A stretch of 64,000 nucleotides of DNA, from positions 768,001 through 832,000 of the forward strand of contig JBDRZU010000001.1 in the NCBI GenBank assembly GCA_039804105.1, written 5' to 3'. The position numbers and the translations under genes were made by a program. This document shows positions 17,330-62,072 of this stretch, piece after piece (the first letter of the stretch is position 1; each line of letters opens with the position of its first letter). Origin of the DNA: a candidate division WOR-3 bacterium. Lineage in GTDB: Bacteria; Hydrothermota; 32-111. The notes beneath the pieces were generated by a model that searched no databases, was not told the DNA's origin, and was given only the letters and a program-made list of their open reading frames with translations.

Positions 17330-17339
17330 TATTTTACAA

Positions 17340-18488
17340 ATGAAAGAAGATAAGGGGAATATTTTTTACACTGAATTCAACTATGATAAACTCTATTGGC
17401 TGATAAATATAAGGACTTTACTTTTAATCTGTTTAACAATAATTTTTTCAATTTTATCAATATTTAAAATCAAAATCAATAACACATTTTCATCAGAGTA
17501 TTTACTTTTATGGCATATAATAGCACTTGCAATCAATTTTTTACTATATATTGATCTAAAATATCTTCAAAACAATAAACACCTGATTATGAATGAGGAA
17601 AATTTTAAATATATTGGAATGATTCAAATAGATTTTGACATTCTTTATACGATAGTTACAATTTTTCTTTCAGGAGGAATAAAATCTCCACTTCTTTTTC
17701 TGTTCATTTACAACATAATCACATCAAACTTTTTGATTCAGGATAGAAATACTTTCTTTTATACTCTTATATTGATAGTACTTATTTTCATCTCAGAGTT
17801 CAGATTCAAATTCAAGGACACTTTCCCATACATAGAGTATAAAACTTTGGAAAAGTTTGAAAATATGGTGTTGATCTCACTCATATTTTTTTTCCTCTTT
17901 TACCTTTCAAAATATGTATCAGAAAAACTGAAACAAAAACAGGAAGAATTGAACAAACTCTATCAGGAAACATACAAATTATCTATAACTGATAGATTAA
18001 CAGGCCTTTACGATCAAACATATTTCAGAGTCAGTGCTTCAGATGCTATTGAAATCGCAAAAATCAATAACAACAAACTTGCAATAGTTATGTTTGATAT
18101 CGACAATTTTAAAGAGTTCAACGATACTAATGGACATCTTATGGGTTCAAGGGCATTGGTCCAGATAGCACAGATTATGAAAAAAACTTTCAGAAAAACT
18201 GATATCCTTGGTAAATATGGAGGAGATGAGTTTATAATACTCTTAAAAGATATCGATGAAAATTATATAACATTTGTTCTTGAGAGATTCAAAAGTCAAA
18301 TAGAAAATTTTAATTTTAATCCAGAAACATCAAAGGTCTCACATTTAACTATTTCCATAGGTGTTTCTTTTTTCCCAAAAGATGGAGATAACCTTGATAC
18401 ACTTATCGATAAAGCAGATAAAGCGTTATATACTGCAAAAAATTTAGGTAAAAATAATCTATTCATTTTTGATGATAGTAAAAAGTAG
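17340..18488 (+). CDS. Membrane diguanylate cyclase with PilS-like N-terminal TM domain
   Basis: About six TM segments, coiled coil, TDRLTGL, DIDNFK, NDTNGH, I-site RKTD and active site YGGDEF; start 17340 or 17325. Confidence 0.9.
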   Translation: MKEDKGNIFYTEFNYDKLYWLINIRTLLLICLTIIFSILSIFKIKINNTFSSEYLLLWHIIALAINFLLYIDLKYLQNNKHLIMNEENFKYIGMIQIDFDILYTIVTIFLSGGIKSPLLFLFIYNIITSNFLIQDRNTFFYTLILIVLIFISEFRFKFKDTFPYIEYKTLEKFENMVLISLIFFFLFYLSKYVSEKLKQKQEELNKLYQETYKLSITDRLTGLYDQTYFRVSASDAIEIAKINNNKLAIVMFDIDNFKEFNDTNGHLMGSRALVQIAQIMKKTFRKTDILGKYGGDEFIILLKDIDENYITFVLERFKSQIENFNFNPETSKVSHLTISIGVSFFPKDGDNLDTLIDKADKALYTAKNLGKNNLFIFDDSKK

Positions 18489-19949
18489 TTTTACGATATC
18501 AGGATCATAAAGTTTTCCAACATTTTCGTTGAATATTCCTTCTATATGCTTATCTGTCAGTTTAAAAATATCTTTAAAAACACAATATTCTCCAGCAACC
18601 CTGACTATTCTTGAGCCAACCGGAATTTTTTTACCGACGAGTTTATTAAAACCCGTTCCATCATAGTTTTCGTAAAGAAATTTAATAATCTTTTGTGCAT
18701 CTTCAAGCATCACAAGGGGTGCTATAATGTCTGCACCAGAAACGATTGCCTGTTTGATCTCAAGTGATTTTTCAGGGTCAAAGTATGTTGGTGCATTGAA
18801 GATTTCCTTTGGTTTACTCAAAAGTCCAAGCAGATGCAATAAAGCAGAATACTGAATATCCCTTATCTCATCATCAGAAAGTTCCATCCTTTTTGCTATT
18901 TTAACTGAAAGTGCTGAAACTTTTTCACTGTGTTTTTTTAAACCAGGGAATATCCTATCTTCAAGGTATAAAAAAGCGATCAAAGATTCAAGATAACTTC
19001 TTCTTGAATCCTCAAAAAATTTTGCGGATGCAAGTGAATTCGTGATAACAATTCTTGCAATCTCAAAAAGAACAATCTTTTCATCTTTGATTTTCAATGA
19101 ATCTATTTCAAATATAAAAACTCCTATGATCAGTTTTCCTAAAAATATTGGTAAAGTAACCGTTGAATTATCCTTAATACCTTTAAGAGAGTATCCAATA
19201 TTTATTTTTGAAGATTTAAAATATTCGATAAACTGGGTCTTGTTTATTTTGGTTCCTACAGGAAACTCTTTTTCAAAATTTCTTTCTTTTTTTACAACAA
19301 AATCTCCACTCTTTTCATCAAACAATAAAAGCACTAAAGAGTGAGGATTAAAAATTGAATCAAGTTTTTCAAAAATGTTTAAAGAATTCGATTCAAAAGA
19401 TTTTATCACAGAGATCATTTCAGAGAAAGTTTTTAGTTCCTCGATGCTTTTTAAAAGTTCTTTTAGATAATTATCAAGTTTTTCCTTTTGTTCTGATACC
19501 AGCTGGTTAGTATTTAACAATTCCTCATTCATCTTTTGAATGTCAGCACTTAACCGTTCTTTATCTAAAAGTAACTGTCTTTTTTCATAAGCGTTTCTGA
19601 TAACAAGTAACATTGTGTCAGCCGTGAATGGCTTTGATACAAAATCGTAAGCACCACTCCTTATGCAGGTCATTGCAAGATTTATATCTATTGTTGCTGA
19701 GATTACTATTATAGGTGAAAAAGGATTTTCTATCGAAAAACTTGTTATGAAATCAAATACATCTGTTCCAGGTAATGAGAGATCAACTATTATCAAAGAA
19801 TAATTATTTAACGATAAAAGATTTTTAAACTGTACACCATCCGTTGCAATATCAACATCAACACTATCCTTCTTTTCATACTCGATAATTTTTTTTAAAA
19901 AATTTGCGACAGTGATTTCACCATCAGCAACTAATATCTTTTCTTTCAT
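18459..19949 (-). CDS. Response regulator: REC, coiled coil/GAF-like region and degenerate HD-GYP domain
   Basis: REC (IVDLSLPG, AYDFVSKPF); C-terminal HSEKV...ALLHLLG...LYENYDGTGF...IPVGSRI follows the HD-GYP fold but lacks metal ligands. Confidence 0.8.
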   Translation of the reverse strand: MKEKILVADGEITVANFLKKIIEYEKKDSVDVDIATDGVQFKNLLSLNNYSLIIVDLSLPGTDVFDFITSFSIENPFSPIIVISATIDINLAMTCIRSGAYDFVSKPFTADTMLLVIRNAYEKRQLLLDKERLSADIQKMNEELLNTNQLVSEQKEKLDNYLKELLKSIEELKTFSEMISVIKSFESNSLNIFEKLDSIFNPHSLVLLLFDEKSGDFVVKKERNFEKEFPVGTKINKTQFIEYFKSSKINIGYSLKGIKDNSTVTLPIFLGKLIIGVFIFEIDSLKIKDEKIVLFEIARIVITNSLASAKFFEDSRRSYLESLIAFLYLEDRIFPGLKKHSEKVSALSVKIAKRMELSDDEIRDIQYSALLHLLGLLSKPKEIFNAPTYFDPEKSLEIKQAIVSGADIIAPLVMLEDAQKIIKFLYENYDGTGFNKLVGKKIPVGSRIVRVAGEYCVFKDIFKLTDKHIEGIFNENVGKLYDPDIVKLLFTIIKNE

Positions 19950-19950
19950 T

Positions 19951-22900
19951 TTAACTGTTCAAAGGCAATTTTATTACAAAAGATACACCATTTTCTCTGT
20001 TAACAGCGAATATTGTCCCATTGTGTTCCTTTATAATATTAAAGGAGATTGCAAGACCGAGTCCTGTGCCACCACTCTTCGTTGTGAAAAACGGTGCAAA
20101 AATTTTTGAGAGATTCTCCTCAGGAATTTTTGGACCATCGTTATAAATATCTATAACAAGAAAATTGTCTTCTTTTTTAATCGAAATTTCAATATGACCA
20201 TTCTTTCCAATCGATTGGACAGCATTCAAAAGTATATTCATAAAAACTTCGATCATCTGTTCCTCATCAACCATTATCTCCTGAATATCCTCATTTATGT
20301 TAACATTCAGAGATATGTTCGTTTCTTCAAGTTTATTTTTTACCATCTCAACCGCATGATTTAAAACATCGAGAATGTTCACCTTTGAAAGTAGCACAGT
20401 TTTTGCCTTTGCAAAAGATGTCATATCGTTCACAAGCCTGTCCAATCTTTTGACCTCTTTTATCACAAGATCTATTGACTCAGTGAGTATATCATCATCT
20501 TTAAGTCGCATCTTTAAAAATTCCATTCCAGTTAAAATACCTGAAAGAGGATTTTTTATCTCATGCGCCATACCAGCTGCCATCTGTCCAAGCATCGCAA
20601 GGTTCTCTTTTGCTTTCAATTCATTCTGAATCTTTTTGATTTCAGAAAGATCTTGAATTATACATACGAGTTCAAGATCCTTTTCGAATTTTATAGGTGT
20701 AATACTTATACCACAGGGTACACTCCCCCTCTTCTTGCTTTTTAAAATTATTTCATCTCTGAATAAAGGTTTTTCACTTTTAATAACATTATCTATTATT
20801 CCATTTTTATCCTCAAAAAGATCAAGATAATGCATGTTGAAAATCTCATCAGGTTCATATTCACCGATTTTTAAAAGTGAATTGTTAAAATGTATAACCT
20901 TTCCATTTCTATCTATATAAACAACACCAGAAGGTATGTTGTTCAAAATCAGATCAGAAATCTGCAAATCCTTAGAGGATTCTTCAAACCTTGAGATTGC
21001 TATGATCGCTGTGTTTGCAAGAGTTTCAAGAAACTGTTTATCCGACTCAGAAAAATATCCACTCTTTTTGTTATCAACACACAAGACCCCAATCGTTCTA
21101 CCAAGAAACTTTAAAGGAACATTTATAAGATTTTCTACTTTATAATATTTTGATAAAGATTTTATCGGTTTAAAATATTCACTCTTAGTCACATCATTTA
21201 AAATCAAAGAGTTTCCAGTTTTATAAACATATCCAGCAGCACTTTCTGACATATCCTTTACCTTTTTCAATTTTTCGATTTCTATGCCCAAAGATGCTTT
21301 GAAAACAAGTCTCCCACTCTCCTGAAAAAGAAGGGAAGCATAGGTCCCATCAACGATTTTAACAGCAGATTCAAGAAGATATTTGAAAAACTCTTCAATA
21401 CTTTTTACATAAATGAGTTTTTCAGTCAGATTGCTAATAATGTTATACTGCTTCAATTTTCTTTCATTTTCATCAAACAGTAATGCACTTTCAAATTTGA
21501 TATAAAGTTCTTGAACGATAGCGTTAAAAGTATAATCATATATTTTTGTTTTAAGGTTATTATCTGAAAAAACGATCAGGAGGAATTTATCCTTTTTGTT
21601 AACAAAAATGGGTAAAACTGTTGCATACCGTATCTCTTTTTTAAAAAATGATTTACTAATTTTTGGATCATCAAAAAAGTTTGTAACACTCTGATTTATC
21701 TCTTGTTCAAAATAATATTTTTTCTTATCCAAAAGTATAGTTTTTAGTTGTTCGTTTTCAAAATATGTTTCTTTTATTTGATAACTTTCATCTTCATTTT
21801 TTTCAAGAAGTAATGTCACTTTACTTTTAAGCAAACTTCCTAAAGTTGCGGTAACTATTTTTGAAAGAAATTTTAGATTCAAAGAACTTCTTAAACTCGT
21901 AAAAATTTTGTACAGAATCGTCAACTGTTCAATCTTGTTTTCCGAGTCCATCTGTAAAAGAAGAGATTTTATAAAACTTGCTGAATTGTTCGAAATTATT
22001 TTAACAAGTTCAAAATCTTTTTCAGTAAAAGGAATCTTTCCAAACCTTGTCAACATTAGAACACCAACAAGTTCACCCTTGAAAATTATCGGTACACATA
22101 TACCTGCCTGTGATTGTTTTTTATAACCTTTTGTGTATTCAATGTTAGGAAACTTTAAAAGATCGTCAAGCATTAAAGGTTCTTTTGTGAGAGCAACTGT
22201 TCCAGAAATACCTTTTCCAACAAAAAAATCTCTCTCCATCAATTCTTTTTCATCTATACCTATCGCCGAAACAGCTCTTAGTTTATCCTCTTCAGTTTTT
22301 ACCAGTATAAAACCTCTATCAGCGTTTATCTCTGAAATTAAAAATTCAAGAAGGTTTCTGAAACTTTTTTTATAATCTTTATCCTGTGATAATATTTTTG
22401 AAACTTTTAATATCACTTCAAGTTTTTTCAAACTTTCATTCTTTTCTTCATAAAGATACGATTTATCAAATATATTTCCAACCTGTTCGTAAAATGTTTG
22501 TATAAAATCCTTTTTAAACCTGTCATTTGCAACATCTTCTGTAAACTCAGTGATTATCTTTCCAAACATCTTTTTGTTATAAATTATAGGCAAATAAATT
22601 ATATTCTTTATATTTTTCTTAACTTTTAATTCGTTTAATTTTGCTCCATAATAATATATTACATTTTCATCTCTTAAATTTTTAAAATGATCCAAATGCT
22701 TGCTCTTTATTTTGTTTAAATCAAAAGTTGTAACATCAAGTTTAAACTGTTCATCTTTTAAAACATCTACATAATAAACATTTTTCGGTTTAAGATTTTT
22801 AAAATAGTATTTCAAAACCTGAGGAATTAAAACTTTTATATCAATATTTGAAGAAAAAAGGTTGTTCAAATTATTCACAATTTCTGTCTTCTTTTGAACG

Positions 22901-23898
22901 AAATAATACTCTTCTTCAATCATTTTTTTCTCGGTAATATCCTCTATCAAAATCACAACTCCAACACATCTTCCATTCTCTATCAAAGGATATCCATAAA
23001 GATTTTGAACGAGTTCTTTTTTTAGCCTTGTGGAATACCTTTTAACTCCAAGCATCCTTCTCGTCTTTTTTGTCTCTATTATTTCAGAAAGTATTTTATC
23101 GAGTTTCAATTCGAGTAGATCAGGGAAAAGGTCAAAAATATTTTTACCTATCATCTCAGAGTTGGTGAATTTATACTTTTCCGCTGTAAATTTGTTAAAC
23201 TTGATTATATTACCTTCCCTGTCAAGAACAATGATTCCCTGTGCAATAGCATCAAAGACAAGATTCTGAATCCTTTTTAAACCTTCGATCTCTTTTGTCC
23301 AAATCTCCTTTTCTTTGAGATCATAAATTATCACAATAGAATAATCTTCCCATGGAAAGATACTGACTTTTACAGAACTGGAATTTCCATTTACATCATA
23401 CATTTCTATGAAAAGTTCCTGTTTTATCTTCTTTTTTAACGATATTATTGTTTTTTCTAGATAGTCAGGCAAAACATACTCACTGAAATATGTCGCATTA
23501 CCTAAATATGTATCCCCATATTTTATCTGAAATGATTGGTTTGAAAGGATAACCTTTAAATCTTTATCAAGAAAACATACAGCAGAATCTATACTATCAA
23601 GGAGTTCTGCGAGAAGGTATATATCCATTATGGAAGAAGTGTTCACTTCGTTTTTAAAAAATATGATGATCTTTTCATAGTTCGGGAAATTAAAGTAAAT
23701 GTATTCACCGAAAGTACTATAGATAAAAATATCCCTTTTAAATTTTATCGATGATAAAAATCTTTTAATATCAAAATCTTTTTCAACAAAATTCTCTTTA
23801 CGGTAATCTGATACCACCCTCCCATCATAGGTTGACAAAATAAATGAAATATTTTTTAATTTTAAAAAATCAAGAAAAGATACTAAAACATTTCTCAT
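19951..23898 (-). CDS. Cytoplasmic multi-sensor histidine kinase (PAS/GAF repeats, HisKA, HATPase)
   Basis: H-box MAHEIKNPL, N-box NILLNAVQ, G-boxes FFTTKSGGTGLGL; PAS-like (GIIVLDREGNIIKFN) and GAF-like (GKGISGTVA...CVPIIFKGELVGVL) segments; no TM. Confidence 0.9.
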   Translation of the reverse strand: MRNVLVSFLDFLKLKNISFILSTYDGRVVSDYRKENFVEKDFDIKRFLSSIKFKRDIFIYSTFGEYIYFNFPNYEKIIIFFKNEVNTSSIMDIYLLAELLDSIDSAVCFLDKDLKVILSNQSFQIKYGDTYLGNATYFSEYVLPDYLEKTIISLKKKIKQELFIEMYDVNGNSSSVKVSIFPWEDYSIVIIYDLKEKEIWTKEIEGLKRIQNLVFDAIAQGIIVLDREGNIIKFNKFTAEKYKFTNSEMIGKNIFDLFPDLLELKLDKILSEIIETKKTRRMLGVKRYSTRLKKELVQNLYGYPLIENGRCVGVVILIEDITEKKMIEEEYYFVQKKTEIVNNLNNLFSSNIDIKVLIPQVLKYYFKNLKPKNVYYVDVLKDEQFKLDVTTFDLNKIKSKHLDHFKNLRDENVIYYYGAKLNELKVKKNIKNIIYLPIIYNKKMFGKIITEFTEDVANDRFKKDFIQTFYEQVGNIFDKSYLYEEKNESLKKLEVILKVSKILSQDKDYKKSFRNLLEFLISEINADRGFILVKTEEDKLRAVSAIGIDEKELMERDFFVGKGISGTVALTKEPLMLDDLLKFPNIEYTKGYKKQSQAGICVPIIFKGELVGVLMLTRFGKIPFTEKDFELVKIISNNSASFIKSLLLQMDSENKIEQLTILYKIFTSLRSSLNLKFLSKIVTATLGSLLKSKVTLLLEKNEDESYQIKETYFENEQLKTILLDKKKYYFEQEINQSVTNFFDDPKISKSFFKKEIRYATVLPIFVNKKDKFLLIVFSDNNLKTKIYDYTFNAIVQELYIKFESALLFDENERKLKQYNIISNLTEKLIYVKSIEEFFKYLLESAVKIVDGTYASLLFQESGRLVFKASLGIEIEKLKKVKDMSESAAGYVYKTGNSLILNDVTKSEYFKPIKSLSKYYKVENLINVPLKFLGRTIGVLCVDNKKSGYFSESDKQFLETLANTAIIAISRFEESSKDLQISDLILNNIPSGVVYIDRNGKVIHFNNSLLKIGEYEPDEIFNMHYLDLFEDKNGIIDNVIKSEKPLFRDEIILKSKKRGSVPCGISITPIKFEKDLELVCIIQDLSEIKKIQNELKAKENLAMLGQMAAGMAHEIKNPLSGILTGMEFLKMRLKDDDILTESIDLVIKEVKRLDRLVNDMTSFAKAKTVLLSKVNILDVLNHAVEMVKNKLEETNISLNVNINEDIQEIMVDEEQMIEVFMNILLNAVQSIGKNGHIEISIKKEDNFLVIDIYNDGPKIPEENLSKIFAPFFTTKSGGTGLGLAISFNIIKEHNGTIFAVNRENGVSFVIKLPLNS

Positions 23899-45559: not shown

Positions 45560-46074
45560 AACCTCTCCTTTTTTAAACTTTTTAAAAATGATCTTTCACC
45601 TAAAAAAAACTCCCTTGCGACATCACTTTTATAATCAGGATAAGTCCAATCAAGATATTTTATTCCATCTTTCGTGAAAATGAATGTAACCTCACAATAG
45701 ATCCCTTCCCCAAGATATATCCTATGGGAATAATTCTTTGTTGTCAGAAGTTGAACATTGTTCAAAGTTATAACACCTGGATCTATGTTTATTTTTCTTT
45801 TACCATCGATCCTGAATCTGTTTTCTATATCTATTGAAATCTTTTTCTTTTCAAAAAAAGATTCAAGTCCTATAGGTTCCTCAAAAGATATCCATTCACG
45901 GATAACATTTTCACCTATCTCATCATCATAATAATGAGAAAATTCAGAAAACTCCAAAGTTTTTGAAAAACTTTTTATTTCTCCAAAAGCATCCCTAATA
46001 TCGGATAATGCTTTGTACCTTATACCATTATCACTATAAAGTAAACCACAGAAAAGAATGTTGCTTTCCATCAA
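45556..46074 (-). CDS. DUF4416 family protein
   Basis: YYDDEIG, RKINIDPG, TTKNYSHRIYLGEGIY, WTYPDY. Confidence 0.8.
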   Translation of the reverse strand: MMESNILFCGLLYSDNGIRYKALSDIRDAFGEIKSFSKTLEFSEFSHYYDDEIGENVIREWISFEEPIGLESFFEKKKISIDIENRFRIDGKRKINIDPGVITLNNVQLLTTKNYSHRIYLGEGIYCEVTFIFTKDGIKYLDWTYPDYKSDVAREFFLGERSFLKSLKKERL

Positions 46075-46853
46075 TATATCTTTTTTAAAATGTCAAAAAG
46101 AAAAAATATGATAAATGAAGCCAAAGAAAGAAATGGGACAAAGGGAATCTCGGGATCAGGTCTTTTTCTATAATAAAAAAAATAAGCAATAAGCCCTAAA
46201 ACTCCCGCTATTATAAAAACATAAAAAATTAGAGGATAACCTATAAAAAAACCTATAAAAGATGAAACATAAATATCTCCTTCTCCCATACCTTCCTTTT
46301 TCATTACTTTTGAAGCAAGAAATCTTACAATAAAAATAAATAGACCACCAACAAACCCTCCAATTATCGATTCTTTAAAATCGAGAAACGGAAGTTTAAA
46401 AACTTCACTTTCACCTGTAACACTCAAAAGAAAAATTGAAACATATAATAAATAGATTATCACAGGTAATATAAAAATGGGAACAAAAACATTTTTTGTT
46501 TTCAAATCGATGAATGAACTTATAAGAAGTGTTGAAAACAGCATAATATAAACTATTGATAAAAGGTTGAATCCAACCTTTATGAAAATTAAAAGGAAGA
46601 TCAAACCGGTCAATAGTTCAACCACTGGGTAAACTATACTTATCTTTGCCTTACAGTACCTGCATTTCCCTCTGAGTATAATGAATGAAAGAAGTGGTAT
46701 ATTATCATACCATTTTATACTCGTTTTACAAACAGGACAAAATGATGATGGTAAAACTATAGATTTTTTTTCTGGAATTCTGTAGATTAGAACATTGAAA
46801 AAAGAACCAAAAACAAGGCCGAATACAAAAACTATAATATAGGAAAATATCAT
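46071..46853 (-). CDS. pilD: Prepilin peptidase / N-methyltransferase
   Basis: GSFFNVLIYRIP, CPVC...CRYC, FID, GMGEGD, IPFVPFL. Confidence 0.95.
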   Translation of the reverse strand: MIFSYIIVFVFGLVFGSFFNVLIYRIPEKKSIVLPSSFCPVCKTSIKWYDNIPLLSFIILRGKCRYCKAKISIVYPVVELLTGLIFLLIFIKVGFNLLSIVYIMLFSTLLISSFIDLKTKNVFVPIFILPVIIYLLYVSIFLLSVTGESEVFKLPFLDFKESIIGGFVGGLFIFIVRFLASKVMKKEGMGEGDIYVSSFIGFFIGYPLIFYVFIIAGVLGLIAYFFYYRKRPDPEIPFVPFLSLASFIIFFLFDILKKIY

Positions 46854-49388: not shown

Positions 49389-49811
49389 TCACTCTGTTGT
49401 TCCAGGTGTTAAAATAAGATCAACCAAAGTATCTTTTCCAAAACCTGTAATCTTATAATCCTGTCCTGCTGCTGCTCCACCATCTGGGTTTGGTGTTTCA
49501 TATCCAACAATACCTTGAGAATTTGCTTCACTCAACCAAACATATGATCCACCATCACCTGTTGCCTGTGTATATGGGTTTTTGAAGTTCTGTGGGAGAT
49601 AACTTGTTGTAACATCTGTCTGTGGATAAACACCACCTGAATCTACTGAAATTGTCTCAATAGCAACCTGGAAAGTGTGCATGTTTGCTTTGACTGAAGA
49701 TATTTTTGCTTTGTCAATGATCTGAACAAAGTTTGGTATTGCTATTGCAGCAAGAATACCAATGATAACTACAACGATCATGAGTTCGATAAGTGTAAAA
49801 CCTTTTTTCAT
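49389..49811 (-). CDS. pilA: Type IVa pilin (probable major pilin)
   Basis: MKKG/FTLIELMIVVVIIGILAAIAIP class III signal; strong AAGGAGG RBS and its own terminator. Confidence 0.88.
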   Translation of the reverse strand: MKKGFTLIELMIVVVIIGILAAIAIPNFVQIIDKAKISSVKANMHTFQVAIETISVDSGGVYPQTDVTTSYLPQNFKNPYTQATGDGGSYVWLSEANSQGIVGYETPNPDGGAAAGQDYKITGFGKDTLVDLILTPGTTE

Positions 49812-49930: not shown

Positions 49931-50332
49931 TCAAAAAAGATGTGTCGCTGGGGTTAATTCAAGTAGAGTTGAATCAGTATTTTTTCCATATCCAGTTATT
50001 CTATAAAAATCTAAAGAACCTTCATATTCAACAACACCTTCAATATTCGTTTCCTCTGCATTCTGTATCGCAGGAGAAAGATTACTATAAGGATTTTTGA
50101 AATTCTGTGGTAAAGCATCAACAAAACCTTCAATGTTTGGAAAATATTCAAGATATGTTTTTTCTGCTGCTTTAGTCTCAACTGTCATCTGAGTTGTATG
50201 CATATTTGATACTACACTTGCAGCTTTTGCCCTATCAACAAGTTTATAAAAATTGGGAATCGCAATAGAAGTTAAGATTCCTATGATCACAACAACTATC
50301 ATCAACTCGATAAGTGTAAATCCTTTTTTCAT
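49931..50332 (-). CDS. Second type IVa pilin, paralogue of pilA
   Basis: MKKG/FTLIELMIVVVIIGILTSIAIP; shares NMHT, LPQNFKNPY and Y.ITG.GK with pilA; start placed at ATG 50332. Confidence 0.88.
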   Translation of the reverse strand: MKKGFTLIELMIVVVIIGILTSIAIPNFYKLVDRAKAASVVSNMHTTQMTVETKAAEKTYLEYFPNIEGFVDALPQNFKNPYSNLSPAIQNAEETNIEGVVEYEGSLDFYRITGYGKNTDSTLLELTPATHLF

Positions 50333-50345
50333 AGAAAAAGATAAA

Positions 50346-50430
50346 AGCAAAAAACATTCCATTTATAAGTTATGAAAATTTTTAATTTAATCAAAATTAA
50401 TTAAGTTTTTTCTTTCGCATTTTGCAAAAA
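50346..50430 (-). promoter_or_regulatory. Sigma-54 promoter and upstream activator site of the second pilin
   Basis: TGGAAT-GTTTT-TTGCT (canonical GG-N10-GC, GG at 50360-50359); TTTCGCATTTTGCAAAAA at 50413-50430. Confidence 0.7.
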
Positions 50431-50479: not shown

Positions 50480-51595
50480 ATGAAAAAAATTCTTATATTA
50501 ACATTTTCTGATATAAAATCGGATTCCAGAGTTTTAAGATACCTAAAATCTTTTGATGAAACTTACACTGTTTATCTTATCGGTAATGGAGATTTTTTAC
50601 CTGAAAATAAAAATCTTGTCTATATCAACATAAATTACAGGTCAAGAAGAAAAAACAAATCGATTTTTGAATTTTTGTATTATAATTTCTATTTGAAATA
50701 TAAAATATTTGTACTTATAAAAAATATCAAACCTGATTTTATTCATTCAAACGATTTTGAAACGTTTCTTCCATCGTATATAGCATTTTTAAATAAAAAA
50801 CATAAAATAATATATGATTCGCATGAGATATGGTGTGAAAGAGCAGGTGTAAGAAAAAATTTTGCTACAAAAATTCTCAATCTTTTTGAATATCTGATTG
50901 AAAAATCTTTCACAAAAAAGATTAAGCATTTTATTACTGTTTCAGATTCGATCAAACTTCATTTTGAAAAAACATATAAAATCAAGAATCTCTATGTGAT
51001 CAGAAATCTCCCAATTGTGAATGAACAGAGAGAAGCTGAGAGAAACATCTTTGATTCATTAAAAGATGAAAAAAGATTAAAATTTGTTTATATTGGACCT
51101 TTATCTTATGAAAGAAATATTCCATTTTTAATAGATATCTTTAAAGATTTTGAAAACGATTTTCATTTAACTTTAATCGGGAAAAATTTTTTAACATTGC
51201 CTGATTATGAAAATATAAAAATTTTTGAAAGTATAGATGAAAACAAAATCATTCCAACTTTAAAGATTTTTGATATTGGTGTTCACCCCTTAAAAATTGA
51301 TAACTTAAACCACAAATTTTCTTTACCGAACAAAATTTTTCAATATATGGCATCATCTCTTGCATTATTCGTTTATCAAAATCTTGAAACTTTAAAGATT
51401 ATAGAAAAATATAAAAATGGTTTTACTGCTGATTTTTCTGATCGTAAAGATGTTGAAAGAAAATTAAAACTTTTTAAAAATACAGATATCAAAAAAATGA
51501 AGGAAAATTCATATAGAGGTTTTGCAGAAGAGTACAATTGGGATAAGGAAAAAAAAGTTTATCAAAAAATTCTTAAAAAAATTACAAATCTTTAA
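50480..51595 (+). CDS. Glycosyltransferase family 4
   Basis: DSRV, IHSND, YDSHE, YIGPLSYER, SLPNKIFQYMAS; TGnTATAAT 6 nt before the ATG. Confidence 0.85.
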   Translation: MKKILILTFSDIKSDSRVLRYLKSFDETYTVYLIGNGDFLPENKNLVYININYRSRRKNKSIFEFLYYNFYLKYKIFVLIKNIKPDFIHSNDFETFLPSYIAFLNKKHKIIYDSHEIWCERAGVRKNFATKILNLFEYLIEKSFTKKIKHFITVSDSIKLHFEKTYKIKNLYVIRNLPIVNEQREAERNIFDSLKDEKRLKFVYIGPLSYERNIPFLIDIFKDFENDFHLTLIGKNFLTLPDYENIKIFESIDENKIIPTLKIFDIGVHPLKIDNLNHKFSLPNKIFQYMASSLALFVYQNLETLKIIEKYKNGFTADFSDRKDVERKLKLFKNTDIKKMKENSYRGFAEEYNWDKEKKVYQKILKKITNL

Positions 51596-52934
51596 TATTG
51601 TAATACCTGATTTTTCTATAGAGAGTTGATAAATTTATTCCAAGTGCCAAACTTGCCTGTTTTTTGTCATAGTTAAAATATTTCAAAGTATCCTCAATAA
51701 GTTTTCTTTCAACATCTTCGATTTTCTGTGGAATGAAATCTGTTCGATCCGTTTGAATTTTTAAATTCGAAAGTAGTGGAATATCCGATTTTTTTATTTC
51801 AAAATTATCTTTTATCACAATTATCCTTTCAACTATATTCATAAGTTCTCTTACATTCCCAGGCCATGAATATTCGGTTAAAACATTATAAACTTCAGGG
51901 TCAATCTTTTTTATAGTTTTTCCCATCTTTTTTGAATAGTAAGCAACATAATAATCAAAAATCTTTGGAATATCACTTTTTCTTTCCCTCAAGGGTGGAA
52001 GATCTATTCTGACAACATTCAATCTATAAAAAAGGTCCAACCTGAATCTATTATTTTTCACCTCCTCATCTATGTCTTTGTTCGTCGCTGAAATTATTCT
52101 AACATCAACAGGTATAGGTTCTGTAGAACCAACTGGAACAACTTCTTTTTCCTGTAAAACTCTCAAAAGTTTTGCCTGAAGAGAAAAATCCATCTCAGAT
52201 ATCTCATCAAGAAAAAGAGTCCCCATATTTGCAACCTTGATCAGTCCATCCTTATTTGTGTATGCACCTGTAAAAGCACCTTTTTTGTAACCGAAAAGTT
52301 CACTTTCTATAAGGTTTGGGTTCAGAGCAGCACAGTTGAAAGAAACAAAGTTTTTATCTCTTCTTCTTGAATTGTTGTGTATCATCCTTGCGATCAACTC
52401 TTTTCCCGTTCCACTTTCTCCTGTGATCAGAACTGTTGAGTCGGTTTTTGAAATATCGTTTAAGTTCTTTAAAATAATTTTTATCTTTTCATCTTCACCT
52501 ATAAAATCTGTTGGTATTTGAAATTTTTCTCTTTCTTTAAGATAAATGTAATTTAACTTTTCATCCCTATTTTTCAAAGCCCGATCAACGATTTCGACAA
52601 GATAATCAGAATCTTCAACCTTCTCAAGAAAATCGAAAGCACCATTTCTGAGTGCATCGAGCAAAAGTTCTTGTGTTTTTCCAAATGCTGTTATAAGGAT
52701 AACATTAACTATTGGATCTATCTCTCTTAGCCGCTTTAAAAGTTCTATTCCTGATATCTCTCTCATCTTAATATCTGAAATCACAAGATCGATGTTCTCG
52801 TTTTTGAATTTTTCCAAAGCATCATAAGGATTTGTTGTAAATGTAGTTTTGTAACCTAAATTTTTGAGTTTGTAATCAAGAACTTTACATCTATTCAAAT
52901 CATCATCAACTATTAAGATGTGATATTTATTCAA
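51582..52934 (-). CDS. pilR: Sigma-54-dependent response regulator (NtrC family), PilR
   Basis: REC, GESGTGKE, ESELFG, GAFTGA, FRLDLFYRL, WPGNVREL, Fis-type HTH; follows pilS. Confidence 0.85.
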   Translation of the reverse strand: MNKYHILIVDDDLNRCKVLDYKLKNLGYKTTFTTNPYDALEKFKNENIDLVISDIKMREISGIELLKRLREIDPIVNVILITAFGKTQELLLDALRNGAFDFLEKVEDSDYLVEIVDRALKNRDEKLNYIYLKEREKFQIPTDFIGEDEKIKIILKNLNDISKTDSTVLITGESGTGKELIARMIHNNSRRRDKNFVSFNCAALNPNLIESELFGYKKGAFTGAYTNKDGLIKVANMGTLFLDEISEMDFSLQAKLLRVLQEKEVVPVGSTEPIPVDVRIISATNKDIDEEVKNNRFRLDLFYRLNVVRIDLPPLRERKSDIPKIFDYYVAYYSKKMGKTIKKIDPEVYNVLTEYSWPGNVRELMNIVERIIVIKDNFEIKKSDIPLLSNLKIQTDRTDFIPQKIEDVERKLIEDTLKYFNYDKKQASLALGINLSTLYRKIRYYNIKDL

Positions 52935-55700: not shown

Positions 55701-56792
55701 TTAAATATTAACATTTCCTGTCTTTCTATATTCAGCAAGCATCTTTTCAAGTTCTTCGGGCTCCTTCGAAGCAGCCATCATATTCTCAAGTGTAATCTGT
55801 CCTGTTCTATAGAGTTCAAACAACGCCTGGTTCATAGTCTGCATTCCATATTTTTTCCCTGCCTGTATCATAGAGTATATCTGGTGCACTTTGTCATCTC
55901 TTATCAACGCTTTTATTGCAGGTGTTCCAGCAAGTATCTCCATAGCCATCGCTCTTCCACCTCTTATCTTTGGAACAAGTGTTTGAGTCATTATAGCAAT
56001 TATAACAAAAGCGAGTTGTGCTCTGACCTGTCCCTGTTGTGCTTCAGGGAAAACATCTATGATACGGTTTATCGATTCTGCTGCTGAGTTTGTGTGTAGT
56101 GTGGCAAAAGTCAGGTGTCCGGTTTCAGATATAGTTAAAGCTGCCTGGATCGTTTCAAGATCTCTCATCTCACCTATCATCACAATATCAGGATCCTGTC
56201 TCAAAGCGTATTTTAAAGCACTCGCAAAAGATTTTGTATCAGAACCAACCTGTCGTTGGTTAACTATACATTTTTTATGTTTGAACAAGAATTCTATTGG
56301 ATCCTCAACAGTGATTATATGACTTCTTCTTTCCTGATTTATCTGATCTATCATTGCAGCAAGAGTTGTCGATTTTCCTGAACCGGTTGGACCTGTAACA
56401 AGTATTAGTCCTTTTGGTCTTTTTGCAAATTCTGATACTATTGGTGGTAACCCGAGTTCTTTGTATCCTTTTATTTCAAAAGGAATCTGTCTTAAAACCA
56501 TTGCAACATTTCCACGTTGTCTGAAAACATTTCCTCTGAATCTTGAAAGGTTTGGAACAGAAATCGAAAGATCAAGTTCCCAGTTCTGTTCAAATGTTTT
56601 CTTCTGCTGATCGTTTAAAACAGAATATGCTAACTGTTCACAATCCTGTGGTTTTAAAACATCATAGTTCATTGGAACAATCTCTCCATCGATTCTTATA
56701 CATGGAGGTAGTCCTGCTGTTATATGTAAATCTGATGCTTTTCTTTCAACCATCTCAGTTAAAAGTTGAACTATTGAAGGTAAAGGTGACAT
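55701..56792 (-). CDS. pilT: Type IV pilus retraction ATPase
   Basis: ASDLHI, GPTGSGKSTT, EDPIE, LRQDPD, ETGHL, AIKALIRD, GMQTMN. Confidence 0.95.
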   Translation of the reverse strand: MSPLPSIVQLLTEMVERKASDLHITAGLPPCIRIDGEIVPMNYDVLKPQDCEQLAYSVLNDQQKKTFEQNWELDLSISVPNLSRFRGNVFRQRGNVAMVLRQIPFEIKGYKELGLPPIVSEFAKRPKGLILVTGPTGSGKSTTLAAMIDQINQERRSHIITVEDPIEFLFKHKKCIVNQRQVGSDTKSFASALKYALRQDPDIVMIGEMRDLETIQAALTISETGHLTFATLHTNSAAESINRIIDVFPEAQQGQVRAQLAFVIIAIMTQTLVPKIRGGRAMAMEILAGTPAIKALIRDDKVHQIYSMIQAGKKYGMQTMNQALFELYRTGQITLENMMAASKEPEELEKMLAEYRKTGNVNI

Positions 56793-56803
56793 CTATAAAC
56801 CTC

Positions 56804-58567
56804 CTATTCCATTACAGCTGTTTCTCTTATAACCTCTTCTATCGTCGTTAAACCTTTTTTGACTTTTATCAAAGCATCGTCTCTTAAAGTTTTCATCCCT
56901 TCTTTTTTCGCCTGTTCTCTCAATTCAGCAGTTGATGCTCTGGCTAAAATCATCTCTCTGAGTTTGGGAGAGATAGGCATAACCTCTGTTACAGCCAATC
57001 TTCCCTTATAACCCTTTCCACCGCAGAAATCACAACCATCTCCCTTTTCATAAACCTGATGACCTTTCAAAATGAGAGGATCTATTCCATAATCTCTTAA
57101 TGTCTCCTCATCATAAACGATAGGCTTTCTACATTTCTCACACACCTTTCTGAGCAACCTCTGTGCCTGAATCAAATTTAAAGCAGCTGAAACAAGAAAC
57201 GGTTCAATTCCCATATCTATCAATCTGTTTACTGTTGAAGGTGAATCGTTTGTGTGAATCGTTGAAACAACAAGATGACCTGTGAGTGCTGCTCTTATTG
57301 CAATTTCTGCTGTTTCTGTATCTCTTATCTCTCCAACGAGTATCACATTTGGTGATTGTCTCAAAAATGCTCTTAGAGCTGATGCAAAAGTGAAACCAAT
57401 ATCTGGGTTGACCTGAACCTGATTTATTCCGTAAAGGTTATACTCTATTGGATCCTCTGCTGTCATTATCTGTATATCTGGTGTGTTCAGAGATGATAAA
57501 GCAGAATACAAAGTTGTTGATTTTCCTGAACCTGTTGGTCCTGTAACAAGAACTATTCCATAAGGTTTATGTATAGCTGCCTGGAATTTTTCGAGGTTGT
57601 CTGGCTCAAATCCAAGTTTTGTCATTTCAAGTTGTAATGCTGATTTATCAAGTATTCTCATAACAACCTTTTCTCCAAAAAGCACAGGTATTATTGAAAC
57701 TCTAAGGTCTATCTGTTTATCATAAACCTTCAACCTTATTCTCCCATCCTGAGGAATATTGTGAACAGCGATGTCAAGTTCTGACATCAGTTTTATTCTA
57801 GAAACGATTCCAGCTTTCAGTTCATATGGGGGTCTTATAAGTTCAGTTAAAACACCATCAACTCTAAGTCGTACTCTTAAATAATTTTCAAATGGTTCTA
57901 TATGTATATCGGATGCTTTTAGCTCAACCGCCTTTGTAAATATATAGTTTACAATTTTGACAACCGGCTTATCCTCTGCTGCTGAAGCACCATCGATAAC
58001 CATCTCTTTTGAGTCGGCTTCTCCAACAACCTCCACATCATCATCTCCAAGAGAAATATCCTCATCTATATCAAGGTTAACTTCTTCATCAATATCAAGA
58101 TCAATATCTATATCATCCTCTTCAGAAAACTCACTCACCTGTGTTTGTGCTTCCCTGTATTTACCAAGTGCTTTTTGGAGTGAATTTTCAGTGGTAACAA
58201 CAGGAATAACATCGAGTCCTGTTTTGAATTTGACATCATCTATAGCGTTAAGATTTGCGGGATTTACCATAGCAAGAAAGAGCATATTACCGGTTTTCTT
58301 ATATGGTATCATCATATGTTTTGTTGCAAGTTCCTCTGGTATCAGATTCAAAATCTGAATAGGTATATCCTCTTTATCTATCAGGATAAATTCGGTTTTA
58401 AAATATTTTGCAAGAAATTTTGCGATTTTCTCTTCAGTTGAAAAACCTAAACTTACAACCGACTTGATAAAAGATTCCCCTGTCTCTTTCTGTCTTTCGA
58501 ATACCTTTCCAACCTGTTCCCTGTTCAAAATTCCTGCTGAAGTGAAAAGATTGGCAAGTGTTTGCAT
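56804..58567 (-). CDS. pilB: Type IV pilus extension ATPase PilB, paralogue 2 (degenerate MshEN motif)
   Basis: ASDIHIEP, PQDGRI, GPTGSGKSTT, GEIRD, CEKC/CDFC zinc site. Confidence 0.9.
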   Translation of the reverse strand: MQTLANLFTSAGILNREQVGKVFERQKETGESFIKSVVSLGFSTEEKIAKFLAKYFKTEFILIDKEDIPIQILNLIPEELATKHMMIPYKKTGNMLFLAMVNPANLNAIDDVKFKTGLDVIPVVTTENSLQKALGKYREAQTQVSEFSEEDDIDIDLDIDEEVNLDIDEDISLGDDDVEVVGEADSKEMVIDGASAAEDKPVVKIVNYIFTKAVELKASDIHIEPFENYLRVRLRVDGVLTELIRPPYELKAGIVSRIKLMSELDIAVHNIPQDGRIRLKVYDKQIDLRVSIIPVLFGEKVVMRILDKSALQLEMTKLGFEPDNLEKFQAAIHKPYGIVLVTGPTGSGKSTTLYSALSSLNTPDIQIMTAEDPIEYNLYGINQVQVNPDIGFTFASALRAFLRQSPNVILVGEIRDTETAEIAIRAALTGHLVVSTIHTNDSPSTVNRLIDMGIEPFLVSAALNLIQAQRLLRKVCEKCRKPIVYDEETLRDYGIDPLILKGHQVYEKGDGCDFCGGKGYKGRLAVTEVMPISPKLREMILARASTAELREQAKKEGMKTLRDDALIKVKKGLTTIEEVIRETAVME

Positions 58568-58568
58568 A

Positions 58569-60299
58569 CTACCTTAAAGCGGTCTCCTTTACAACCTCAA
58601 GTATATCTGTTACACCCTGTTTCAGTTTTCTTAAAGCAACCTCTCTCATAGTTACCAATCCGTTTTCTATAGCAATTTTTTCAAGATCATCTGTTGTTAA
58701 TTTTTTCATTATCGCTTTTCTTATTTCAGGTGTTATATCCATAACCTCAAAGATTCCAACCATTCCTTTATAGCCCGTTCCACCACATTTTTCACATCCA
58801 GCACCTTTATAAAGTTTTGCTCCTCCGATCTCCTCGGGTGAAAAACCAAGACGTTTCAATTCTTCATCAGATATGTTATGTGGAATTTTACAATTTTCAC
58901 AGATCCTTCTCAACAATCTCTGTGATACTATACAGTTTACAGTTGAAGAGATCAAAAATGGTTCAACACCCATGTTTATCAACCTCGTTATAGTTCCTGA
59001 GGTAGAATTCGTGTGAACCGATGATAGGACAAGGTGTCCTGTGAGTGATGCTCTTATCGCGATTTCTGCTGTTTCTCGATCTCTTATCTCTCCAACCATT
59101 ATAACATTTGGATCCTGCCTGAGATATGCTCTTAACGCTGATGCAAAAGTTAAACCGACCGACTCTGCAACCTGTAACTGGTTCACTCCATCGAGTGAAA
59201 ACTCAACAGGATCCTCTGCTGTTGTTATGTTTATTTCTGGACTATTTATCTTTGAAAGACATGTGTAAAGTGTTGTTGTTTTTCCTGAACCTGTTGGACC
59301 GGTTATCAAGATTATACCAACAGGGTTTCTTAGTGATTTCATCAATTTTTTTTCAAGATCTGGATCAAATCCTAATTTATCAAATTCAAAATCAACCTTT
59401 TCCCTGTCAAGGATTCTCATCGCAACCTTTTCACCATACATAGTGGGAACCGTAGCAACACGGATATCTATTGGTTTTCCATGAACTTTAACCTTTATTC
59501 TTCCATCCTGAGGTAATCTCGCTTCTTGGAGTTTCATATGAGCCATAACTTTTATTCTTGAAACGATCGATTTTCTGAATTGCCATTTTGGAGGATTTTC
59601 AATCGGTCTTAAAACACCATCTATCCTGTATCTTATCCTTAATGACTGATCGTATGGCTCAATATGTATATCTGAGGCACCTTCTTCAACAGCTTTTGTA
59701 ATCAGGTTGTTTACTATTTTGACTATTGGCCCACTATCCACAGATGCAGCAAGATCACTTACAACCTCATCTGCCTTTTCATTTTCATCCTTTTTTATGA
59801 CTTCAACATTCTCTTCAACTATATCGTTCAGATCGATATTATCCAAATCATCAATATCAACTTCAACATCGTCCTCTTCTGGATAATACCTGTTGATGAA
59901 TTCAAGTATCGATCTTTCGGATGATATCAAAGGAATGATCGTGTGTGCAATTGTAAACTGAATATCCTGTATCACAAACATATCCGCAGGGTTAGCCATT
60001 GCAAGATAAAGAGTTTTTCCCTCTCTTCTAACGGGAAAAATCGTATGTTGTCTTGCAAGTTTTCCAGGTATTATCTGAAGCAAAGATTCATCAACTTGAA
60101 TCTCTTCAAGATTCACAGCCTGAACTTTGTACTGTTTTGAAAGAAATTCTATAAGTTTTTTTTCTGATGTATATCCGAGTTCAACAAGAACAGTCCCTAA
60201 CTTTTTGTTTGTTTGTTTTTGAACTTTTAATGCTTCATTTAGTTGCTGATTGTTTATGATCCCAGCATTTATTAAAAGTTCTCCTAATTTTTCAGCCAT
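58569..60299 (-). CDS. pilB: Type IV pilus extension ATPase PilB, paralogue 1 (intact tandem MshEN motif)
   Basis: KLGELLINAGII...LNEALKVQ and KLGTVLVELG; GPTGSGKTTT, GEIRD, CENC/CEKC. Confidence 0.92.
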   Translation of the reverse strand: MAEKLGELLINAGIINNQQLNEALKVQKQTNKKLGTVLVELGYTSEKKLIEFLSKQYKVQAVNLEEIQVDESLLQIIPGKLARQHTIFPVRREGKTLYLAMANPADMFVIQDIQFTIAHTIIPLISSERSILEFINRYYPEEDDVEVDIDDLDNIDLNDIVEENVEVIKKDENEKADEVVSDLAASVDSGPIVKIVNNLITKAVEEGASDIHIEPYDQSLRIRYRIDGVLRPIENPPKWQFRKSIVSRIKVMAHMKLQEARLPQDGRIKVKVHGKPIDIRVATVPTMYGEKVAMRILDREKVDFEFDKLGFDPDLEKKLMKSLRNPVGIILITGPTGSGKTTTLYTCLSKINSPEINITTAEDPVEFSLDGVNQLQVAESVGLTFASALRAYLRQDPNVIMVGEIRDRETAEIAIRASLTGHLVLSSVHTNSTSGTITRLINMGVEPFLISSTVNCIVSQRLLRRICENCKIPHNISDEELKRLGFSPEEIGGAKLYKGAGCEKCGGTGYKGMVGIFEVMDITPEIRKAIMKKLTTDDLEKIAIENGLVTMREVALRKLKQGVTDILEVVKETALR

Positions 60300-60306
60300 A
60301 CATTAA

Positions 60307-60334
60307 ATTTTATTATTTTATTTTTTTAAGTCAA
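60307..60334 (-). promoter_or_regulatory. Putative leaderless promoter of pilB1-pilB2-pilT-pilC
   Basis: TTGACT-N16-TAAAAT-N7-ATG; no SD sequence. Confidence 0.55.
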
Positions 60335-62072
60335 GTTTTAATTTCAAAGATGCTCTTACAAAACCAAAAAACAATGGGGATGGAGAGAATATTGTTGATC
60401 TGAATTCAGGATGTGATTGTGTCGCAACAAAGTATCTATGATTTTTTAATTCGATAAACTCCATCAACTTTTCATCTTTTGAAACATTATGATATCCAGA
60501 AAAAATTATTCCATTTTTTTCCAGTATTTCAACAAATTGATTGTTTACCTCATACCTGTGTCTGTGTCTTTCAAGAATAACCGGTTTATCATTTTCAAGG
60601 TAACCAAGACGAAATCTATTCTCCTTATCTTTTTTCAAGATTTCAATATAATACTTATCTTCATCTATCCTTCCTGTTTCTTCATACAATTTGTAAACAA
60701 GAGTTCCTTTTAAAAGATGTGCAGCGTAAGCACCAAGTCTCATCGTTCCACCATACCTTGATTCTTTGATCACATTTTTTTGATTTTCAATGAAGTGGAT
60801 TACGGGATATTTTGTATCAGGATCGATCTCAACAGAATTCGCATTTTCAAGTTTGCACACATTTCTTGCAAATTCAACTATAGCAAGTTGCATTCCAAAA
60901 CATAGACCAAGATATGGAATATTGTTCTCTCTTGCAAATCTTATAACTTTTATTTTACCCTCAACACCATCTTTCCCAAAGCCACCCGGAACAATGAATC
61001 CATTATATTTTTTAAGATCCTTTTTATCAATTTTCCCATTCTCAACATCCTGTGCTGAAATCCAATCAATTTTTACACCACAACCATTTTTCGCACCAGA
61101 ATGCTCCAATGCCTGTGCAACAGAAATGTATGAATCTTTTAAAGAAAATTCCCCTATATCGATATATTTCCCAACCATCGCAACATTGATAATATTTTTG
61201 GGATTCTCAATTATGTTGACAGTTTTTTCAAGAAAATTCCAATCAGGTTTTTTTCTTGCTCTCAACGAAAACTCTTTTAAAATCTTTTTTCCGAGTTCAT
61301 CCTTTTCAAAATTTAAAGGAACCCTGTAAAGTGTATCAATATCTGGAGCTGAAATAACATGTTCTGAATCTATGTTAGCATATATCTCGATTTTTTTCTT
61401 TCTCACACTATCGAGAGGTTCCTTTGCACGACAAAGAATAAAATTCGGAAATATTCCATGTTCTGAGAGAAGCTTTATTGCCTGTTGTGTTGGTTTAGTT
61501 TTCATCTCTCCTATATGTTTGGGGGTTGGAAGATAAGTTATAAGAACATATTTTACATTCTCTTCTCCTATCTCCCTTTCAAGTGATTTAACAGCAAACA
61601 GATAGGGGATATTTTCATAATCCCCTATCGTTCCACCGATTTCTATCAAAACAAATTCATATCCATTTCCTATCTCTTTGATCCTTCTTTTTATCTCATC
61701 AGAAATGTGTGGTATGAGTTGGACCGTTTGCCCTAAAAATCTACCTTTCCTTTCATCTTCAATAACTTTTGAGTAGACCTGTCCCGTTGTTATGTTATTT
61801 TTTTTACTGAAATGTTGATTTAAAAATCTTTCATAGTTTCCAAGATCCTGATCTATTTCACCACCATCATCTGTTACCCATACCTCACCATGCTCTGTAG
61901 GTCTTAAAGTTCCAGCATCAAAATTTATGTATGGATCAATCTTTATAGTTGTAACCTTGTATCCATAATTTTTAAGTATCATCCCTATTGATGCTGTCGC
62001 TATACCTTTTCCAACACCACTTAAAACTCCTCCTGTCACAACTATAAATTTAGGAAATTTATTCTTTTTCAT
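60318..62072 (-). CDS. pyrG: CTP synthase
   Basis: TGGVLSGVGKG, KIDPY, KTKPTQ, PGGFG, GLCFGMQ, RHRHRYE, HPE. Confidence 0.96.
   Translation of the reverse strand: MKKNKFPKFIVVTGGVLSGVGKGIATASIGMILKNYGYKVTTIKIDPYINFDAGTLRPTEHGEVWVTDDGGEIDQDLGNYERFLNQHFSKKNNITTGQVYSKVIEDERKGRFLGQTVQLIPHISDEIKRRIKEIGNGYEFVLIEIGGTIGDYENIPYLFAVKSLEREIGEENVKYVLITYLPTPKHIGEMKTKPTQQAIKLLSEHGIFPNFILCRAKEPLDSVRKKKIEIYANIDSEHVISAPDIDTLYRVPLNFEKDELGKKILKEFSLRARKKPDWNFLEKTVNIIENPKNIINVAMVGKYIDIGEFSLKDSYISVAQALEHSGAKNGCGVKIDWISAQDVENGKIDKKDLKKYNGFIVPGGFGKDGVEGKIKVIRFARENNIPYLGLCFGMQLAIVEFARNVCKLENANSVEIDPDTKYPVIHFIENQKNVIKESRYGGTMRLGAYAAHLLKGTLVYKLYEETGRIDEDKYYIEILKKDKENRFRLGYLENDKPVILERHRHRYEVNNQFVEILEKNGIIFSGYHNVSKDEKLMEFIELKNHRYFVATQSHPEFRSTIFSPSPLFFGFVRASLKLKLDLKK

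Follow-up and report, generated by a model that had tools for sequence, protein, structure and literature searches.

Within a 64,000-nt stretch of the genome of an uncultured candidate division WOR-3 bacterium (phylum Hydrothermota; contig JBDRZU010000001.1, positions 768,001 to 832,000; hereafter the window), two full-length genes for PilB, the extension ATPase of the type IVa pilus (T4aP), lie on the minus strand with a single base (58568 in the open reading frame list) between them. With modest confidence, we favour a reading in which these genes, pilB1 and pilB2, are old, coupled paralogues that serve a single T4aP machine and divide the labour between them, cyclic diguanylate (c-di-GMP) acting directly on PilB1 and not on PilB2. 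The features concerned are the following.

58569-60299, minus strand: pilB1, 576 aa, T4aP extension ATPase; N-domain of MshEN type, ATPase core intact
60132-60290, minus strand: PilB1 motif region (residues 4-56), two 24-residue MshEN c-di-GMP motifs (KLG...Q, KLG...Q) with the 5-residue spacer KQTNK
56804-58567, minus strand: pilB2, 587 aa, paralogous T4aP extension ATPase with an intact ATPase core
58403-58561, minus strand: PilB2 motif region (residues 3-55), degenerate MshEN counterpart (TLA...Q, SFI...Y), fold predicted to be kept

The original prediction, made from the sequence alone, had described two full-length PilB genes 1 nt apart with all catalytic motifs in place, and the reading frames, the Pfam matches and the location of the motifs agree with it; the N-terminal strings that it quoted match the translations exactly. 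The T2SSE domain is found with E-values of 1.8e-135 in PilB1 and 8.1e-135 in PilB2, the MshEN C-subdomain is recognised in both, and Walker A (GPTGSGKT/S), the Asp box, Walker B (GEIRD), the His box and two CxxC pairs are present in the two proteins alike, which are 44% identical over their full length. At the junction (...AGG TAG T ATG...) the TAG of pilB1 is followed by one base and the ATG of pilB2, and on the minus strand the motor pair heads the order pilB1-pilB2-pilT-pilC-pilS-pilR.

Both proteins belong with the pilus motors. Their closest solved structures are Geobacter PilB (6olj, 5tsg, 5zfr) and Myxococcus PilB (3jc8), at E-values of about 1e-162 to 1e-169, as against about 1e-112 to 1e-115 for GspE chains, and the PilB1 and PilB2 clades both fall among PilBs in a tree of the ATPase part (an alignment of 111 rows and 509 columns that leaves out the N-terminal 62-68 residues; quick search with IQ-TREE under LG+C20 PMSF, with the PilB-REC paralogue described below as root). 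That PilB2 might group with the GspE of a separate type II secretion system (T2SS) was the outcome named beforehand as fatal to the idea; it was checked and is not what we find, since the ranking of solved structures, the tree and the absence of a second platform or secretin all rule it out. In the window's genome, which is 85% complete, PilC, the secretin and PilM each occur once and PilT twice, and exactly one PilC is found in 12 of the 13 genomes of the window's family (f1), always beside the pilB pair, four of these genomes being 95-100% complete; the PilC search gave no match in the thirteenth, which is in 330 contigs. Given these single copies, and one PilC in nearly all genomes of the family, PilB1 and PilB2 must share one platform. 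By gene counts this amounts to two extension ATPases for one platform and one machine, as with PilB and TfpB of Acinetobacter baylyi.

The two motors differ at their N-termini. We scored each half-site of the MshEN domain at the 11 key positions of the relaxed search pattern [RKPN]hGxxhhxx[GAS]hhxxxxhxxxhxx[QNKRYWST] (Wang et al. 2016, PMC5013675). PilB1 carries KLGELLINAGIINNQQLNEALKVQ (11/11), the spacer KQTNK and KLGTVLVELGYTSEKKLIEFLSKQ (10/11, the sole miss being a Thr at position 12), which satisfy (R/K/L)LGxxhhxxGhhxxxxLxxxLxxQ twice in 24+5+24 residues, and its N-domain aligns to that of MshE (5htl) with an E-value of 2e-21. In PilB2, TLANLFTSAGILNREQVGKVFERQ and SFIKSVVSLGFSTEEKIAKFLAKY reach 8/11 each and the MshEN motif is not found, both halves having lost position 1 (T and S) and position 3 (A and I, where Gly is expected). 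The key-position scores thus uphold the earlier claim that the c-di-GMP motif is kept in PilB1 and lost from PilB2. In the published structural account, the O6 and N7 of guanine are bound by the backbone amides of the position-3 Gly (Gly11 and Gly40) and of the residue that follows, and this Gly is invariant even in the relaxed motif (PMC5013675). It is absent from both halves in all 13 PilB2 proteins of the family and retained in 14 of the 15 from other families, and it is reasonable to expect that PilB2 does not bind c-di-GMP. The Lys that replaces the consensus Arg in PilB1 had been regarded as a weakness, a concern that published measurements remove: PilF's GSPII-B domain, with Lys and Leu at position 1, is reported to bind with a dissociation constant (Kd) of 6 nM, which the K167R substitution weakens to ~92 nM, and K or L at position 1 is described as raising affinity, so that the consensus was extended to (R/K/L)LG (Neissner et al. 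2024, PMC11731258). On these data the Lys of PilB1 predicts high affinity and not weakness; judged from its residues, the pocket appears complete and of the high-affinity Lys type.

The N-domain of PilB2 does not look like a relic. An AlphaFold2 model of residues 1-148, built from a 47-sequence alignment, has a mean predicted local distance difference test score (pLDDT) of 89.2 and a predicted TM-score (pTM) of 0.79, and its best Foldseek match is the non-binding GSPII-A domain of PilF (9g1w, TMq 0.81), with MshEN in complex with c-di-GMP (5htl_B, E 3e-10, TMq 0.72) and the Xanthomonas citri PilB N-domain in its PilZ complex (7lkm, TMq 0.66) among the top structural matches. The model suggests that the two-subdomain MshEN/GSPII fold is retained at the PilB2 N-terminus. 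In the 53-residue motif region, the PilB2 proteins of the family are 29% identical to those of other families, the corresponding value for PilB1 being 47%, and outside the family PilB1 and PilB2 are 45% identical to each other. When genera of the family are compared with one another, PilB2 shows 68% identity in the motif region and 79% over the remainder of the N-domain, the PilB1 values being 68% and 56%. Low identity to other families combined with high identity within the family argues for change followed by purifying selection and not for decay, and the first 55 residues of PilB2 appear to have been remodelled on the family's stem lineage and conserved thereafter. A decaying N-domain was considered and is ruled out by the confident predicted fold and by this conservation.

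Such a pattern could also mean that the PilB2 N-domain binds another input, either a protein cofactor, as in the case of PilZ-FimX, or another nucleotide, and that the two motors answer to two inputs. The remodelled region is as conserved in the family as that of PilB1 and the rest of the domain is more so, the predicted fold is intact and resembles the PilB of the PilB-PilZ complex, and the PilB proteins of X. citri and Pseudomonas, from which the motif is absent, are described as regulated through PilZ/FimX (PMC8389850). We nevertheless consider this somewhat unlikely: no PilZ-domain gene was found in the genome at its 85% completeness, and a route of the Xanthomonas type, acting indirectly, is therefore not evident; the conserved operon has no candidate partner gene; and the sequence points to no ligand.

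The pair is widespread and old. A search of 40 relatives with PilB2 gave a match in 39, adjacent PilB1/PilB2 pairs occur in families f1, f2, f4, f6, f7, f11, f12, f14 and f15, the order pilB1-pilB2-pilT-pilC-pilS-pilR is kept in every relative with a long enough contig, and the gap between the stop codon of pilB1 and the candidate start codon of pilB2 measures -4 to +13 nt in 24/24 pairs. In the tree, the PilB1, PilB2 and PilB3 clades (PilB3 being a further paralogue, see below) have support values of 100, 93 and 99, respectively, in the Shimodaira-Hasegawa-like approximate likelihood ratio test (SH-aLRT), the sister group of PilB3, with weak support (85), being the PilBs that occur singly in Gemmatimonadota, Krumholzibacteriota and Eisenbacteria. 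The approximately unbiased (AU) test rejected one exclusive phylum-wide PilB1+PilB2 clade (p 0.0037, log-likelihood difference 53.9), for a group named post hoc and on a quick tree. Since such a clade is rejected, the duplication would be at least as old as the phylum; a recent duplication is ruled out by the same test and by the separate phylum-wide clades.

The state of the motif, on the other hand, varies among these pairs. Counting a copy as intact when it has Gly at position 3 in both halves, and taking the window together with 24 other pairs, both copies are intact in 10/25 pairs (four in f4, one each in f6, f7 and f15, three in f11), PilB1 alone in 11/25 (10 in f1, one in f14) and PilB2 alone in 4/25 (three in f2, one in f12), while no pair (0/25) has lost both. 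This corresponds to about four independent losses among 25 pairs of related genomes, plus one, in a B2-type copy, in a genome labelled UBP2. Loss of the motif from PilB2 is thus a derived trait of the window's family, and the proposed division into a gated and a blind motor a lineage-specific overlay, one pocket having always been left so far in the phylum. Outside the phylum, where 69 of 80 fetched loci had a long PilB-like open reading frame, 65/69 had a single one and 4/69 had at least two; by the tree, the tandems of Omnitrophota and of L079 are independent duplications. The Gly of the MshEN motif is gone from both copies in the Omnitrophota tandems (L076 and L089), whose stop-to-stop frames are separated by 8 and 3 nt and whose genes stand directly upstream of pilC, no pilT intervening. 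Because the pair exists with both motifs intact, and because tandems exist with neither, c-di-GMP asymmetry is not the reason for the pair's existence. The original prediction of two motors that share one PilC/PilT therefore stands as regards the single platform, with its one PilC, and falls as regards a gated/blind split as the purpose of the pair. On a public contig of the UBP2 genome (L036, 3521-8761), genes that the tree places as B3-, B1- and B2-type stand in a row and are followed by pilT, with degenerate motifs (NLS..., PQA...) in the B2-type copy only; the row may represent the ancestral arrangement.

The remaining genes of the window that bear on the pilus, together with the gene upstream of the motor pair, are listed here.

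55701-56792, minus strand: pilT retraction ATPase, 363 aa
54482-55684, minus strand: pilC platform protein, two T2SSF domains, the sole PilC found in the genome
52927-54468, minus strand: pilS-type histidine kinase (6TM_PilS, PAS, HisKA, HATPase_c)
51582-52934, minus strand: pilR-type sigma-54 response regulator
49931-50362, minus strand: type IV pilin A, N_methyl motif
49389-49811, minus strand: type IV pilin B, N_methyl motif
46071-46853, minus strand: pilD prepilin peptidase
60318-62072, minus strand: pyrG, upstream of pilB1, with rpsA also upstream on the minus strand
17325-18488, plus strand: diguanylate cyclase whose 6-TM sensor domain is PilS-like, at a distance of ~38 kb from the motor pair

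Only 18 nt (60300-60317) separate pyrG from pilB1, and the order rpsA-pyrG-pilB1 is conserved in the family, so that transcription may run on from these housekeeping genes into the pilus operon. A GT4-family glycosyltransferase gene (50480-51595, plus strand) lies on the opposite strand, with pilR on one side and the two pilin genes on the other; it keeps this position in the genus as well as in another genus of the family and may encode a pilin glycosylation enzyme.

The window's genome has genes for c-di-GMP turnover, with five GGDEF matches and one EAL match. The cyclase at 17325-18488 combines 6TM_PilS (PF25323, 41 bits against a cut-off of 27) with GGDEF (PF00990, 143 bits) and has an intact GGDEF signature. 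PilS is the genome's only other protein with 6TM_PilS, and the membrane domains of the two share 29% identity over 122 residues (E 5e-6). Full-length relatives of the cyclase occur in 10 of the 12 other f1 genomes and in four of five f2 genomes, and in G005 the gene stands ~6 kb from pilB1. The PilS-like cyclase invoked in the original prediction is thus real; in the window it is ~38 kb away from the operon and unlinked to it, and the pilin-sensing circuit built upon it is conjecture. In Caulobacter, pilin is reported to be linked to c-di-GMP signalling (PMC7196804), and a link from pilin to c-di-GMP through the PilS-like cyclase is conceivable here. The adjacent PilS was itself considered as a cyclase and is ruled out, its domains being HisKA and HATPase_c and the cyclase a separate gene. 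The cyclase gene is convergent, with a 30-nt overlap, with a gene for a REC-HD_5 (HD-GYP-like) protein (18459-19949, minus strand), which is followed by a gene for a 1315-aa PAS/GAF histidine kinase (19951-23898, minus strand), and the genes of 17325-23898 may form a module that makes and breaks c-di-GMP.

Across the phylum, five relatives without a GGDEF match (97-99% complete) have no pilB pair in the family-model search, four of them having only short or motif-less PilBs and the fifth, G024, no PilB match at all, whereas every genome with a pilB pair has at least four GGDEF matches. The PilBs of G018, G020, G026, G036 and G038 (L144-L148), genomes with no GGDEF match or one weak match, are ~530-565 aa long and their N-terminal four-helix motif region is absent or unrecognisable; c-di-GMP synthesis and the MshEN_N pocket appear to have been lost together in these genomes.

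The observation that the motif has been lost from one copy in 15/25 pairs, from either paralogue and never from both, invites another explanation, namely that PilB1 and PilB2 assemble into one mixed hexamer, with alternating subunits for example, in which the pocket is needed in one subunit type only. If the mixed hexamer were obligate and required one pocket, this would explain why either copy, and never both, is affected. Tight translational coupling in all 24 pairs and the retention of both genes in one operon in at least nine families would also fit, and hetero-oligomers of PilB and TfpB have been raised as an open possibility (review PMC11656802, section 11). Yet coupling and co-retention are equally compatible with two separate homo-hexamers, all catalytic motifs are present in both proteins, neither of which looks like a dedicated non-catalytic partner, and no heteromeric PilB hexamer is described in the literature that we searched. 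Hetero-hexamers and a matching of each motor to one of the two pilins had both been suggested in the original prediction; nothing in our analysis supports them and they are conjecture. We regard a mixed hexamer as unlikely, and the fuller scenario, in which it is obligate and its single pocket is fed, in the window's family, by the pilin-sensing PilS-like diguanylate cyclase, as similarly doubtful. If true, the obligate mixed hexamer would be the first heteromeric extension motor of a type IV pilus.

Quite improbable, finally, is that PilB2 binds c-di-GMP through a retained hydrophobic cluster, in which case both motors would be gated and the difference in motif would do no more than adjust affinity: the key positions left in each half include Leu/Phe at position 2, hydrophobic residues at positions 17 and 21 and, in half-site 1, Gln24, and hydrophobic contacts are reported to dominate binding (mutants of these lose more than 10-fold in affinity, compared with less than 5-fold for the Arg9 and Gln32 mutants of an earlier study; PMC5013675), but the Gly that PilB2 lacks is the residue on which even the relaxed motif insists, the Ile of half-site 2 is bulky, the PilB2 N-terminus (MQTLAN) is free of basic residues, whereas a positive patch has been described for MshEN (PMC5013675), and the GSPII-A domain of PilF, which has one good motif and only one degenerate half, already fails to bind c-di-GMP (PMC11731258).

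The pair is not alone in the window's genome, which encodes four long PilB-like ATPases. PilB3 (G000 C2, 561 aa from MWKRLGDLL...) is an orphan gene with two canonical RLG...Q motifs (11/11 and 11/11), and was found in every f1 genome and in one genome of f12. At its locus (L153:6597-10458), it overlaps by 8 nt a DinG-like helicase gene, followed by a histidine phosphatase gene; the PilB3-DinG order recurs in 10/10 other loci of the family (L155-L164), with the histidine phosphatase in 8/10, and a connection of PilB3-DinG to DNA uptake is conceivable. An exopolysaccharide (EPS; Wzz/Wzy/Wzx) cluster beside PilB3 was considered as a functional lead and dropped, as it is conserved only within the genus. 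The fourth ATPase (G000 C1, L154:8791-10893), of 700 aa, joins T2SSE and the MshEN C-subdomain to a C-terminal receiver domain (PilB-REC fusion) and has no MshEN_N motif. It would be a PilB-like motor controlled by phosphorylation or a signalling ATPase; its gene stands in a signalling cluster that also encodes two histidine kinases, a REC-HD_5 protein and a sigma-54 activator.

Returning to the reading that we favour, two catalytically competent extension motors would be produced in fixed proportion from one message and would act on one platform, dividing the labour by analogy with PilB and TfpB of Acinetobacter. Within the pair, PilB1 alone would be a direct target of c-di-GMP, PilB3, with its canonical Arg-type pocket, being another probable target, and PilB2 would either work independently of c-di-GMP (constitutively) or respond to some other input. 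In short, we infer that c-di-GMP is bound by PilB1 and not by PilB2 and that the two work on one and the same pilus. Several observations weigh against this. First, PilB2 keeps most of its hydrophobic positions (8/11 key positions per half), the Gly-to-Ala change in half-site 1 is mild, and weak or altered nucleotide binding by PilB2 may persist. Second, tandem pairs do without the asymmetry, whether with both motifs intact (10/25) or, in the independent tandems of Omnitrophota, without the motif in either copy. Third, PilB3 and the PilB-REC fusion mean that three or four motors may compete for one platform. Fourth, no PilZ-domain protein is found in the window's genome, although at 85% completeness this is weak evidence, and a second platform protein could have been left unassembled for the same reason, which the close relatives speak against. 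Lastly, among the sequencing runs listed no RNA run contained the stretch, and one RNA run of the same study had next to none of its sequence words.

To our knowledge, a pilus with two extension motors has been studied only in Acinetobacter (PilB/TfpB). The Geobacter and Myxococcus pilB-pilT-pilC-pilS-pilR-pilA locus has the same gene order as that of the window, and its PilBs are the closest solved homologues (6olj, 5tsg, 5zfr, 3jc8); these pil loci have a single pilB. In A. baylyi, normal piliation requires PilB as well as TfpB, neither of which can stand in for the other, TfpB having been proposed as the initiator of extension and PilB as the processive extender (Ellison et al. 2021, PMC8213720; PMC11656802). 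The likeness to our pair lies in gene content, with two PilB-family extension ATPases for one machine and one platform. The differences are that TfpB is as distant from PilB as PilB is from GspE or MshE, and adjacency of the two genes is not described in the available part of that paper (PMC8213720), whereas here the motors are 44% identical, their genes stand 1 nt apart, and the pair is adjacent and translationally coupled across the phylum. A search of the available text of the same paper (PMC8213720) for 'c-di-GMP' gave no occurrence. Because PilB1 and PilB2 are placed among canonical PilBs in the tree, it is unlikely that either belongs to the TfpB clade.

With the MshEN-type ATPases (MshE of Vibrio cholerae, 5HTL; the PilBs of Myxococcus xanthus and C. 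thermophilum; PilB2 of C. perfringens), PilB1 and PilB3 share the 24+5+24 motif at the extreme N-terminus; PilB1 differs in having Lys at position 1 of both halves, as in the GSPII-B type of PilF, its binding being predicted. PilF of Thermus thermophilus, with three GSPII domains of which A does not bind and B and C do (PMC11731258), also combines binding and non-binding domains of the MshEN type, but in one polypeptide, whereas here they are distributed over two paralogous ATPases. The PilBs of Xanthomonas and Pseudomonas resemble PilB2 in having an N-domain of MshEN fold that is without the c-di-GMP residues and yet functional (in PilB2 presumably so), with the difference that here a motif-less motor coexists with paralogues that bear the motif and no PilZ-domain gene was found. 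In the literature searched, whose coverage does not extend to subscription journals, we found no paper on a tandem, coupled PilB pair with asymmetric MshEN motifs.

The pair touches on the question of what selects and controls the extension motors at one pilus base. The reciprocal, phylum-wide pattern of motif loss adds interest to two known themes, the MshEN-regulated PilB and the two-motor type IV pilus, as it provides a natural series in which, depending on the lineage, a coupled PilB pair has the pocket in both motors, in the first only or in the second only. Since they come from an organism with a small genome and are close homologues of proteins of solved structure, these motors should be tractable in vitro, and setting the natural variants side by side could reveal how c-di-GMP binding affects a PilB motor and whether the paralogues assemble together.

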